A stretch of DNA of 29,658 bases from Halobacteriaceae archaeon (lineage in GTDB: Archaea; Halobacteriota; Halobacteria; Halobacteriales; Halobacteriaceae). Positions 1 to 2,246 of the stretch are shown in pieces. Below the pieces are notes generated by a model that saw only the letters and a list, made by a program, of their open reading frames with translations, searched no databases and was not told the DNA's origin. Location of the stretch: the NCBI GenBank assembly GCA_042216675.1, contig JBDGTS010000057.1:1-29658 (forward strand), written 5' to 3'. Each line of letters opens with the position of its first letter. Positions within the stretch are counted from its first letter, which is position 1. Made by a program: the position numbers and the translations under genes.

Positions 1-1501
1 TCCGGAGGAGCGTGTAGAACGCCCACGTCCGGATGATGTCGTGGCCCTGCGGGCGGAGCTGGACCGGTTCGAACTCCTCCTCGGGCCACCCGGCGACGTG
101 CATCGCGGAGATGGAGGAGTCCATCCACGTGTCCATCACGTCGGTTTCTGGCTCCCACTCCGCGGCGCCACACTCGGGACAGGCTGTCTCGGGCGTCTCG
201 TCGGTGGGTTCGACGGGCAGGTCCTCGACGTCGGCGACGTGCGTGTGTCCGCAGTCCGCGCAGTACCAGACGGGGAACGGCGTCGCGAAGACGCGTTGCC
301 GGGAGATGACCCAGTCCCACTCCATCCCCTCGGTCCAGTCTTCGAGGCGGTCGTACATGTGCTCGGGAATCCACTCGACGTCCTGCGCTCTGTCGAGGAC
401 CGCCTCGCCGTCGACCTCCACGAACCACTGCTCTTTCGAGAGAATCTCGATGGGCGTGTCACACCGCCAGCAGGCCCCGACGGACTGCTCGGTGGGTTCC
501 GTCTCGACGAGATGCCCCTCCTCGTCGAGAGTCTCGGCGATGGCCGTCTTCGCCTTGTCGATGGAGAGACCCTCGTAGGGACCGGCGTTCTCGTTGAGGT
601 GGCCGTCCTCGGTGAACACGGCGCGCAGGTCGAGGTCGTACTCCGCCCACCAGTCCACGTCCTGCTTGTCGCCGAAGGTACAGATCATCACCGCGCCCGT
701 CCCGAAGTCGGGGTCGACTTCCTCGTCCGCGATGAGTTCGACTTCCTGCCCGAAGATGGGGACTTCGAAGGTGTCGCCCACGCGGTCCGCGAAGCGTTCG
801 TCCTCGGGGTCGACGGCCATCGAGACGCACGCCGCGAGCAGTTCGGGCCGCGTCGTCGCGATGTCGATGTCGTCGTTGCCGACGCCCTCGAAGGTGAGGT
901 AGTAGAGGGTGCCCTCCTGTTCGATGGGTTCGACTTCGGCGTCCGCGATGGCGGTCTGACAGCGGGGACACCAGTTGACGGGGTGTTCGTCGCGGTACAC
1001 CCGGTCGTCCTCGGCCATCTCGACGAAGGAGCGCTGGGTCTTGCCCCAGTACTCGGGGTCCATCGTGCGGAACTCCTGGGTCCAGTCCTGCGAGAAGCCC
1101 AGTCGCTCCATCGTCTCCTTCATCTGGTCTATCATCCCCTCCGTGTGCTCGATGCACATCTGCCGGAACTCGTCGCGGGGGACGTCGGTGCGGTGGATGC
1201 CCTCGTTCTCCTCGACTTTCACCTCGGTCGGGAGGCCGTGGCAGTCCCAGCCCTGCGGGAACGACACGTCGCGGCCCTGCAGGCGCTGATACCGGGCGAT
1301 GAAGTCCATGTAACACCACCCCAGCGCGTTCCCGATGTGGAGGTTGCCCGTCGGGTACGGCGGCGGTGTGTCGATGACGTAGTCCGTCGCGCCGGTGTCG
1401 CTGTACTCGTACACGTCGCTGTCGCCCCACTCTGCGCGCCAGCGCTCTTCGGCGGTGGCGGGGTCGTAGGAGTCGGGAAACTCGGGGTTGTTCTCAGACA
1501 T
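1..1501 (-). CDS. valS: Valine--tRNA ligase (5' part; runs off the window start)
   Basis: Manual minus-strand translation from ATG at 1501: [21 protein letters not shown]...[20 protein letters not shown]...[15 protein letters not shown]...[14 protein letters not shown]...WVISRQR...[10 protein letters not shown]...[13 protein letters not shown]. Class Ia HIGH-type motif (HIGN) and ValRS signatures. Absent from the ORF track because there is no stop in the window. Confidence 0.96.
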
Positions 1502-1574
1502 ATGTCTCACGGTCGGTTGGACCGACGAGGAAGGCGTGGGGCTGTCGGTCGGCTACCGACGTACTACCGACAGC
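1502..1574 (-). promoter_or_regulatory. Attenuator-like alternative RNA helices in the valS 5' leader
   Basis: Seg1 GCUGUCGGU (1574-1566) pairs with seg2 ACCGACAGC (1549-1541). Seg2 GACCGAC (1550-1544) pairs with seg3 GUCGGUC (1526-1520). Seg3 GUCGGU pairs with seg4 ACCGAC (1517-1512), next to the valS start. Confidence 0.65.
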
Positions 1575-1585
1575 ATCACGCTCAT
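1553..1585 (-). CDS. Putative valS leader peptide MSVMLSVVRR (10 aa)
   Basis: ATG AGC GTG ATG CTG TCG GTA GTA CGT CGG TAG; 3 Val codons including tandem GTA GTA. TATA-like TTTAAG (1615-1610) lies 25 nt upstream of this ATG. The stop is 51 nt before the valS ATG. Confidence 0.7.
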   Translation of the reverse strand: MSVMLSVVRR

Positions 1586-1712
1586 GTCCGGGTGAAGCGG
1601 CCCGCTTCGCTTAAACCTTCCCGTCCGACGCGCCGTGCGACGTTTTTACACGCCAAAAATTATTTTCCGTTTGCATAACTTTAAGTGGGTGGCAGACGAA
1701 CAGTGGAGTGTA

Positions 1713-2246
1713 ATGAGCACCCAGAAGACCGTTCTGAAGGAGGCTGGCACAGTCGGCGAGAACCCCGTGCGACTCGACGAGGAGAAGGCCGAACAGGTCA
1801 TCGACGCGCTGAACACCGACCTCGCGGACGCGTACACGCTGTACCATCAGGTCCAGAAGCACCACTGGAACGTCGAGGGCGCGGAGTTCCGTGACCTGCA
1901 CCTGTTCCTCGGCGACCTGTCGGGAGAACTCGAAGAGGCCGCGGACGCACTGGCCGAACGCGCGCAGGCCCTCGGTGGCGTGCCCCACGCCAGTATGGCA
2001 ACACTCTCCGAGAACGCCACGCTCGACCCCGAGGACGAGGACGTGTACGATATCCGCACGTCCCTCGAACACGACCTCGACATGCTCGGGGACGTCATCG
2101 AGAGCTACCGCGACCACATCGAACTCACCGAGGGCCTCGGCGACCACGCCACGGCGCAGATGCTCCGTGAGCAGTTAGTGGAACTCGAGGAGTTCGCGCA
2201 CGAGATCGAGCACTACCTCGAAGACGACACGCTGGTGCAGGCCTAA
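1713..2246 (+). CDS. dpsA: Dps-family ferritin-like DNA protection protein DpsA
   Basis: MSTQKTVLKEAGTV...LYHQVQKHHWNVEGAEFRDLHLFL...DALAERAQALGGVP (Dps ferroxidase motifs). TTTAAG at 1680-1685 fits a start at ATG 1713 rather than 1635. Confidence 0.95.
   Translation: MSTQKTVLKEAGTVGENPVRLDEEKAEQVIDALNTDLADAYTLYHQVQKHHWNVEGAEFRDLHLFLGDLSGELEEAADALAERAQALGGVPHASMATLSENATLDPEDEDVYDIRTSLEHDLDMLGDVIESYRDHIELTEGLGDHATAQMLREQLVELEEFAHEIEHYLEDDTLVQA

Follow-up and report, generated by a model that had tools for sequence, protein, structure and literature searches.

A leaderless upstream open reading frame with tandem rare valine codons as a candidate ribosome-mediated attenuator of valS in Halobacteria

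How the aminoacyl-tRNA synthetase (aaRS) genes of Archaea sense their own product is an open question, since archaea are not, to our knowledge, known to have T-boxes. It is addressed here at the valS locus of a Halobacteriaceae archaeon (GenBank assembly GCA_042216675.1, contig JBDGTS010000057.1, positions 1 to 29,658 of the forward strand; this whole stretch of 29,658 nucleotides (nt) is referred to as the window, and coordinates are those of the window unless stated otherwise). The gene encodes valine--tRNA ligase (ValRS), a class I synthetase, the best NCBIfam match of its 500-residue fragment being NF009687 (728 bits), and an intergenic region of 211 nt separates it from a ferritin-like gene. 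An initial annotation of this region, made from the sequence alone, had proposed a translational attenuator consisting of a Val-rich upstream open reading frame (uORF) and four RNA segments able to form alternating helices 1:2, 2:3 and 3:4. The analysis described below points to a ribosome-mediated attenuator of valS built on a leaderless uORF, a reading to which we assign a probability of roughly two in three (0.65). The uORF, its frame, its stop codon and its pair of rare Val codons are conserved and linked exclusively to valS; in one species an RNA 5' end lies on the uORF AUG and the leader RNAs have discrete 3' ends.

The positions that had been given for the TATA box, the uORF, the tandem GTA codons, the pairing segments and the hairpin before valS were all found to be correct on the minus strand (Table 1). 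The promoter element lies ~25 nt 5' of the uORF start, as claimed, with ~27 nt between the TATA centre and the uORF ATG, and this spacing is the geometry expected of a leaderless transcript starting on that ATG. The uORF comprises 10 codons (ATG 1585-1583, TAG 1555-1553) and is followed by a spacer of 51 nt; valS itself (ATG 1501-1499) carries no obvious Shine-Dalgarno (SD) sequence, as judged by reading of the leaders. The rarity of GTA noted in the initial annotation holds genome-wide, GTA accounting for 3.5% of Val codons, and CGT for 8.2% of Arg codons, in 889 long open reading frames (ORFs) of the genome from which the window derives (68.8% G+C). A tRNA-Val(tac) gene was found on contig C47 of the same genome. 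Within its 2.15 Mb, which contain 553 GTAGTA sites on both strands, the sole mini-ORF with tandem GTA is the valS uORF.

A set of 40 relatives from the same family and order supplied 30 valS loci, at which conservation was assessed. A uORF ending in GTA GTA CGT(x)stop precedes valS at 28 of these 30 loci; 27 of the uORFs are started by ATG and lie 45-200 nt 5' of valS, and that of locus L024 is started by GTG. When all named valS loci are counted, except for the truncated L091, the uORF is present at 49 of 79, and it is carried by all 18 of the Halobacterium genomes examined (genus g6), so that the conserved Val-codon uORF predicted to precede valS does exist. The genera carrying it include Halorientalis, Halococcus, Natronomonas, Salinibaculum, Halomarina, Halorussus, Haladaptatus, Halocatena, Halarchaeum, Salarchaeum, Halodesulfurarchaeum and Halobacterium. 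It was found at none of 20 loci with non-Halobacteria titles (Methanosarcinales, Methanoperedens, Mnemosynella, Methanonatronarchaeales and similar), and in basal lineages such as Halorutilales valS itself is leaderless, with its own TATA box. Decayed copies were seen at three more haloarchaeal loci, with GGA GTA (L034), a single GTA (L067) or GTA ATA (L056) at the position of the pair. A GTG occupies the TATA-spaced position as the apparent uORF start at L121 (genome G014), L024 (G038) and L056, and these copies would be leaderless GTG starts.

The constraint acting on the uORF was analysed in 76 parsed leaders, all of which had been selected for holding GTAGTA, so that the presence of the GTA pair in all 76 follows from that choice. 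Removal of near-identical leaders and of L066, which holds an N, gave 58 non-redundant leaders; sorting by uORF peptide, done manually, gave 30 lineage groups, each of which contributed one representative. Among the 30 representatives, ATGs located up to 45 nt 5' of GTAGTA are in frame with it in 44 cases and out of frame in 4. An in-frame stop codon follows within three codons of the second GTA in 26/30 and within six codons in 29/30, against 0/30 and 2/30 for stops within three codons in the other two frames, and all three stop codons are used (TAG 11, TAA 11, TGA 8). The uORFs have 7-19 sense codons (median 10) and peptides that are variable except for V-V-R, the residue before the Val pair being Ser, Ala, Pro, Leu or Val in the representatives and Thr in Halobacterium salinarum. 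The remaining Val codons of the 58 uORFs are mostly common ones (GTG 26, GTC 20, GTT 5, GTA 1), and the Arg codon after the pair is CGT in 50/58 leaders, with CGA, CGC and CGG as variants. The control codons thus match the amino acid of the downstream gene, with tandem Val codons standing before valS and linked to valS alone. Taken together, the in-frame ATGs and stops, the rare pair and the variable peptide argue, at the level of sequence patterns, that selection acts on the frame and on two rare cognate codons and not on the peptide.

These patterns bear on the possibility that the conserved signal is not translated at all, the 9-mer GTAGTACGT being either a DNA operator at +19..+27 or a T-box-like RNA specifier that binds tRNA-Val. 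The 9-mer is indeed conserved at the nucleotide level, including CGT in most leaders, and GUA is complementary to the anticodon of tRNA-Val(UAC). An untranslated signal, however, fails to explain why an in-frame ATG stands at variable multiples of three, why an in-frame stop drawn from three stop codons follows so closely, and why synonymous Arg variants occur; nor is the 9-mer a dyad. Searches against Rfam 15, T-box included, returned no family match for the window leader (E<=10) or for 15 other valS loci (E<=0.1), only unrelated weak matches being seen. A T-box riboswitch was rejected on these grounds, the conserved reading frame arguing for translation, and we consider an untranslated signal of either kind highly improbable.

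The linkage to valS was examined class-wide with a sequence-only model of promoter and uORF (R1), built on an alignment of 53 leaders (A4). This alignment comprised 53 of 56 references after L039, together with L055 and L076 (truncated promoters), had been dropped; L005 and L025 had been left out before this stage because of their long uORFs, and an earlier alignment (A1) had taken 22 of 30 loci. The TATA-to-ATG spacing is constant in A4. When R1 was run on 151 genomes drawn evenly from the class Halobacteria, 30 genomes gave exactly one match each of at least 34 bits, and the remaining matches did not exceed 22.7 bits and were confined to the promoter half of the model; the cut between strong and weak matches was chosen after this gap had become visible. 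All 30 strong matches lie immediately 5' of valS on the same strand. By family, strong matches were obtained in 13/13 genomes of f1 plus that of the window, 4/4 of f7, 2/2 of f17, 1/1 of f18 and 9/27 of f2, and none in f6 (63 genomes), f13 (35), f8 (3) or f12 (2). We think that f6 and f13 include Haloferax and its relatives; if so, the absence of the element from these families would explain why it was missed by the omics of model organisms.

A divergent ValRS containing the motif DTPPPTVSG was observed in several haloarchaeal families (f6, f13 and f8 of the class-wide sample among them), mostly without the canonical uORF. In eight genomes of the same order as the window (loci L112-L119; G025-G029, G031, G036 and G039) ValRS is ~45-50% identical to that of the window. 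No such uORF was found within ~450-500 nt of valS in six of the eight, and two carry variant uORFs, one ending in AAVVRA-stop (G027) and one ending in PPVVGAH-stop, followed by TTTCTC (G025). Two histories are suggested by this distribution: the gene may have been replaced while part of the leader was kept, or the leader may have arisen independently.

Transcript evidence was obtained from the valS locus L139 of genome G023, which was assigned to Halobacterium salinarum because public plasmids of this species match its gas-vesicle region with 100% identity. The L139 stretch is contained in 20 RNA runs from six studies, of which four were analysed, and coordinates in this paragraph are those of L139. 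In the small-RNA run X16 a contig terminates at 1693 with the 5' adapter attached, which places an RNA 5' end exactly on the A of the uORF start codon, and in run X9 a contig terminates at 1690; neither run has coverage at 1717-1850. In this species, therefore, an RNA 5' end on the AUG supports a leaderless uORF, the promoter geometry being that of the window. From the raw-read run X21, 84 reads were placed on L139, 81 of them with adapter sequence. The sense depth is 41, 24, 21 and 13 over the leader and 2-6 over the valS body. Of the 84 reads, 27 end at 1653, the last T of a conserved motif (the T-stretch described below), corresponding to a 41-nt RNA; 12 end at 1601, 1597 or 1593 (0-8 nt before the valS AUG) and four at 1581. 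In this one species, these 3' ends fit premature termination or processing at the T motif. A 65-nt plus-strand RNA carrying both adapters was also observed in X16 at 1879-1943, on the opposite strand ~185 nt 5' of the uORF start; it looks associated with a transcription start site (TSS), and such RNAs are thus not special to the valS leader.

The excess of leader RNA over the valS body in X21, together with the discrete ends, is what would be seen if the element were an independent small gene or small RNA, with either its leader RNAs (41 nt and ~50-70 nt) or its 10-residue peptide acting in trans and the location beside valS being of secondary importance. Against this stand the lack of peptide conservation beyond V-V-R in uORFs of 7-19 sense codons, the position of the element immediately 5' of valS and on its strand in 30/30 cases, and the contigs of X9 and X16, which run from the leader into valS. 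An independent gene therefore has very little to commend it in our estimation.

The motif at which these RNAs end emerged from an analysis of the spacers between uORF and valS. In the 30 representatives, k-mers of the T-stretch TTTCTCG/TTTTCG are enriched over shuffled spacers (TTCTC 15 against 1.4 expected, TTTCTC 8 against 0.3, TTCTCG 9 against 0.4), and the stretch, which ends in C, begins 0-61 nt after the uORF stop (median ~17 nt). A second enriched word resembling CAGCGACGAC lies near valS, with AGCGAC in 11/30 representatives against 0.8 expected. Archaeal termination requires only a T stretch, and in Haloferax intergenic terminators consist of a T stretch with termination at C, T5C stopping 95% of reporter transcripts (PMC7237163, in extract). 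The initial annotation had stated that no U-tract follows the window hairpin; this is literally so, but the site of the pyrimidine motif CTTCCTCG matches that of the T-stretch conserved in relatives, and a candidate terminator or pause site, recognised by its sequence, had thus been overlooked. We consider it likely that the T-stretch, as a pause site or a partial terminator, ties the polymerase to the first ribosome. The statistic that predicted structure ends within 10 nt of the motif (56/57 leaders) proved uninformative when folds of leader prefixes were compared (z -0.43).

From the first GUA to the start of the T-stretch the distance has a median of ~33 nt, at which a ribosome at the uORF end would, by our own estimate from footprint sizes, abut a polymerase at the motif. 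This geometry is compatible with the same sensor working with the opposite sign, a fast ribosome pushing the polymerase that is paused at the T-stretch and a stalled ribosome leaving it to terminate, so that ample Val-tRNA would increase valS expression; RNAs ending at the T-stretch are present in L139. The spacing, however, spans 15-73 nt, and the ~20 nt of Halobacterium are too short; in the window, moreover, the 5' arm of the hairpin before the motif would lie under a stalled ribosome, which speaks for the other sign. Feed-forward control would be unusual for an aaRS, judging from bacterial precedents. A response of opposite sign is accordingly considered quite unlikely.

The RNA structure of the window leader was predicted by minimum free energy (MFE) folding. 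The leader has an MFE of -46 kcal/mol (z = -5.2; z = -4.75 over 87 nt), and its fold consists of helix 1:2 and hairpin 3:4. Both elements had been claimed and both appear in the MFE structure: helix 1:2, between seg1 (GCTGTCGGT, 1574-1566) and seg2 (ACCGACAGC, 1549-1541), is longer than claimed owing to the additional pairing GCGUG:CACGC, and the hairpin CTCGTCGGT-CCA-ACCGACCGTGAG ends 4 nt before the valS ATG. The uORF and its partner form a predicted domain of 17 pairs (transcript nt 5-52) that abuts the pyrimidine motif, and the modelled arrangement resembles a terminator. The 7-bp helix 2:3, which had been proposed as the alternative, is possible on paper and is absent from the MFE structure even when the footprint of the stalled ribosome is forced to be single-stranded; in these models the capture of segment 3 by segment 2 in the window would be a kinetic effect at best. 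When the stretch covered by a ribosome that has GUA in the A site is masked, opening the valS start region (-12..+12) of the window costs 3.4 kcal/mol less. Of the proposed four-segment translational switch, helices 1:2 and 3:4 and the easier opening of the start are predicted in the window, whereas helix 2:3 is unfavoured and the scheme is not general in relatives, in whose leaders hairpin 3:4 was not seen as a conserved feature. The wider proposal that a Val-codon uORF controls valS by ribosome pausing gains strong comparative support from the conserved leaderless uORF and its rare pair, but helices 2:3 and 3:4 drawn for it are peculiar to the window.

Across the leaders, the feature that recurs is pairing of the uORF 5' half with downstream sequence. 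In MFE folds this half pairs either just after the stop (window, L003, L012, L016) or near valS, and in 36/58 leaders the best duplex has its 3' strand ending 7-20 nt short of the valS AUG, the maximum being at 9-12 nt. The uORF 5' half pairs more stably with the spacer of its own lineage than with spacers of other lineages (mean percentile 0.31, 22/30 groups below 0.5, Wilcoxon p=4e-4), also when only the last 40 nt of the spacer are used (p=0.0015). Examples of co-variation are GGCUGAC/GUCAGCC in leaders with the uORF MRLTASVVR (Halorussus among them), GCCUGAUG/CAUCAG in Halorientalis, GAUGGUG/CACCAU in Haladaptatus and GCGUCG/CGACG(A)C in Halobacterium and kin.

A separate hairpin was noted within nt 1-31 of the Halobacterium leaders (L122-L139), where in 15/17 distinct leaders pairing is possible between the 5'-terminal AUGCGCGUC and G.UACGUGUGU, which spans the second GUA, CGU and the codon after it; the remaining two have AUGAGCGUC. 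It includes the start codon, ends ~7-10 nt before the T-stretch, and is invariant and thus without covariation support; as modelled, it resembles the hairpin of an intrinsic terminator.

On the basis of these observations the following mechanism is proposed, for which we infer that the uORF is translated, that ribosomes pause on it and do so according to Val-tRNA supply, in which direction valS responds and at which step output is controlled. Transcription would start at or beside the uORF AUG, and ribosomes would load on the leaderless 5' end. Six codons in, they would meet two rare GUA codons, taken to be read by tRNA-Val(UAC), presumably a minor isoacceptor given the rarity of GUA. If charged tRNA-Val(UAC) runs short, through low ValRS activity or low valine, the ribosome would dwell on GUA-GUA, covering the uORF 5' half and blocking its pairing with the downstream leader segment. 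In the window the blocked pairing would be the hairpin closing directly before the pyrimidine/T motif, with the second hairpin standing 4 nt short of the valS AUG. For most other lineages the pairing concerned would be a long-range helix ending ~10 nt before the SD-less valS AUG, with the T-stretch in its loop. Blocking the pairing may then give more valS through less termination or pausing at the T-stretch, through easier initiation at the valS AUG, or through both. In its fullest form, for which we see the odds as about even, the leaderless uORF would sense tRNA-Val(UAC) charging via GUA GUA and feed back on ValRS, with the T-stretch as a checkpoint coupling transcription to the first ribosome, a ribosome-sensitive helix by the SD-less start, and the whole constituting the first archaeal leader-peptide attenuator.

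Several results weigh against this account and are collected here. The stability of the 58 leaders is near chance (mean MFE z -0.62, 7/58 below -2), the window and L018 being extreme. For the alternating switch helices, RNAalifold gave no consensus alternative pair: the MAFFT alignment of 45 leaders, which is not structure-aware, yielded no consensus helix (input, 45 of the 47 leaders with spacers of 45-80 nt, L005 and L025 being omitted), and 17 distinct Halobacterium leaders yielded only the invariant 5' hairpin with no compensatory change. A test for exact 6-mer complements was not significant (15/58 against a permutation mean of 11.5). Footprint masking changed the accessibility of the valS start at -12..+12 by a mean of only +0.1 kcal/mol over the 58 leaders (14 above +1, 14 below -1), and at -30..+5, where the mean gain was 1.9 kcal/mol, the stall position was only slightly better than other masks (percentile 0.41, p=0.03). 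Hairpin 3:4 stays in the window MFE structure under masking, and CTTCCTCG is a poor T-stretch. A terminator hairpin beside the T-stretch was not distinguished from the control in the cognate test (p=0.058 against p=0.043; L048, which has no T motif, was left out), and a uORF-anchored domain closing within 2 nt of the T motif occurs in 27/57 leaders against 18.9 expected, a modest excess. As regards the RNA data, X21 is shallow (84 reads from one run of uncertain library type), and its ends could be nuclease cuts at an A/U-rich spot. The T-stretch of L139 ends only 22 nt past the first GUA, and by our own estimate from bacterial footprint sizes the first ribosome cannot yet have brought a GUA codon into its A site by the time the polymerase reaches that point; a simple model in which the stall controls termination therefore fails in Halobacterium salinarum, and a Val-dependent decision would fall later, at the helix between uORF and downstream sequence. 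The X21 ends could also be short TSS-associated RNAs, which are reported to be common in this species (PMC4169567, in extract).

The weak or neutral outcome of the structure-based tests is also what would be expected of a constitutive leaderless uORF without Val sensing, which would fix a low valS level or time the folding of the RNA, its rare codons acting as a generic slow-down. Short 5' RNAs are found at the neighbouring divergent promoter in run X16 as well, and the long 5' untranslated regions (UTRs) listed for Haloferax contain uORF-like ORFs for which the extract of that table indicates no known sensing (PMC4983044, Table 2). Such a uORF would nevertheless leave unexplained why the pair is always of the cognate amino acid and always of its rare synonym across many genera when the other Val codons of the uORFs are common. 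In the genome of the window, no comparable mini-ORF was found before IleRS, LeuRS, a third class I enzyme or two matches to the TyrRS/TrpRS family, the upstream regions of which are of plain leaderless type, and a crude scan of the same genome returned 35 starts with tandem rare codons among which, by inspection, only valS shows a match between amino acid and gene. A constitutive uORF is thus regarded as unlikely, and attenuation of valS through the leaderless uORF is retained as the preferred reading.

Table 1. Coordinates of the valS leader features in the window and, in the last four rows, at locus L139 of Halobacterium salinarum.
Feature	Coordinates	Strand	Basis or remark
valS (valine--tRNA ligase)	2..1501	minus	5' 1500 nt in window; gene continues beyond window edge
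BRE (transcription factor B recognition element)/TATA promoter GACGGGAAGG TTTAAG	1610..1625	minus	sequence; TATA = 1615-1610
uORF ATG AGC GTG ATG CTG TCG GTA GTA CGT CGG TAG, MSVMLSVVRR-stop	1553..1585	minus	sequence; frame and stop conserved
GTA GTA, tandem of rare Val codons, candidate sensor site for the ribosome pause	1562..1567	minus	rare codon, conservation
Helix 1:2, 5' arm, inside uORF: GCGUG 1581-1577 and GCUGUCGGU 1574-1566	1566..1581	minus	MFE folds
Helix 1:2, 3' arm: ACCGACAGC 1549-1541 and CACGC 1538-1534	1534..1549	minus	MFE folds
Pyrimidine motif CTTCCTCG, degenerate counterpart of T-stretch TTTCTCG/TTTTCG	1526..1533	minus	directly 3' of helix 1:2
Hairpin 3:4 CUCGUCGGU-CCA-ACCGACCGUGAG	1506..1529	minus	MFE folds; specific to window
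L139 TATA	1723-1718		valS locus of G023
L139 uORF MRVGSTVVRV-stop	1693-1661		valS locus of G023
L139 T-stretch	T's 1655-1653, then C 1652		valS locus of G023
L139 valS ATG	1593		valS locus of G023

On the other side of the intergenic region, the divergent ferritin-like gene (1713-2246, plus strand) has its own TTTAAG box (1679-1686, plus strand) ~30 nt 5' of the ATG, and its transcript is probably leaderless. Between the two promoters lies an A/T-rich stretch (~1640-1667). Elsewhere in the same genome, three further TATA-spaced mini-ORFs were observed. One, MVSMSGEHFIRP followed by a stop, precedes a leuA-/cimA-like gene with a LeuA_dimer domain (region of C3:24184, locus L144); it is not Leu-rich, overlaps a possible GTG gene start in another frame, and gave no Rfam match. 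On a putative 'leuA-Halobacteria' Rfam motif, which the initial annotation mentions as proposed upstream of haloarchaeal leuA, the literature search found nothing. The second, MSQRFTRTGGQPCA followed by a stop, lies at C43:14542 (plus strand) just 5' of an aspartokinase-like N-terminus (KFGGTSLG), and the third, MLLW-stop with tandem rare CTA CTA, lies at C5:13314 (plus strand) 5' of an 82-residue ORF with no evident leucine link. A general family of attenuators was not found in this genome, a cognate gene link being seen by inspection only at valS among the 35 starts of the crude scan. A pheS gene was not found in this genome, which is 80% complete.

No description of an archaeal valS uORF or attenuator was found in the literature, although paper supplements and tables of TSSs and small ORFs, which lay outside the search, may bear on novelty. 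The main text of Weinberg 2017 contains none of the terms 'Halobacteria', 'uORF' and 'valS', and the Haloferax papers treat uORFs only in generic terms. If the mechanism holds in its fullest form, transcription-translation coupling serves gene-specific regulation in Archaea. The element also provides a sharply defined test case, being ~85-270 nt long, with two synonymously recodable sensor codons and with Halobacterium as a tractable host, and bears more widely on initiation on leadered SD-less archaeal mRNAs, on the influence of ribosomes on termination at T-stretches and on the purpose of rare codons.

Ribosome-mediated attenuation is a textbook mechanism of bacteria, and we know of no characterised archaeal counterpart. 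In the E. coli pheST (pheM leader), trp, leu and ilv operons, a leader ORF rich in cognate codons senses the supply of charged tRNA; pheST resembles valS in being an aaRS operon, and the rare CUA codons of the leu leader parallel the rare GUA codons of the valS uORF. These classical attenuators have an SD-led ORF, 4-7 control codons, defined 1:2, 2:3 and 3:4 pairings and a terminator composed of a hairpin and a U-run, whereas the valS uORF is leaderless and has two control codons, and no conserved antiterminator/terminator pair was found in the valS leaders. In the ermC and cat/cmlA leaders, as in the mechanism proposed for valS, a helix is melted by a ribosome that pauses within a short leader ORF, which frees the start further on, and the 1:2/2:3/3:4 scheme drawn for the window by the initial annotation has the ermC layout. 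They differ in that their pause arises from a drug and the nascent peptide and not from tRNA supply, and in the valS leaders the start opens under the mask in the window and not across the 58 leaders. T-boxes serve the purpose that is proposed for the element, an aaRS gene sensing charging of the cognate tRNA through a cognate leader codon; the T-box, in contrast, binds tRNA directly and is untranslated, whereas the ATG, frame and stop of the valS uORF are conserved. Within Halobacteria, small ORFs of 23-26 residues occur in the 150-250-nt 5' UTRs of Haloferax trpS (HVO_A0127) and pheS (HVO_2948); they are, like the valS uORF, short and 5' of aaRS genes, but unlike it the extract of the table carries no statement of codon bias or mechanism for them (PMC4983044, Table 2). 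The closest relative described so far is the set of leaderless polycysteine short ORFs of mycobacteria, in which a stalled ribosome blocks the mRNA structure that sequesters the next start (Canestrari et al., 10.1101/834739, in extract). There too a leaderless short ORF comes first, with consecutive codons relevant to the downstream genes; that system, as far as the extract describes it, is bacterial, sequesters an SD-type site and serves cysteine metabolic genes, whereas the valS leader is archaeal, uses two rare codons only, targets an aaRS, stands before an SD-less start and contains a conserved T-stretch. Seen beside these systems, the valS leader has the look of an attenuator read by the ribosome, which for an aminoacyl-tRNA synthetase would be the first archaeal example.

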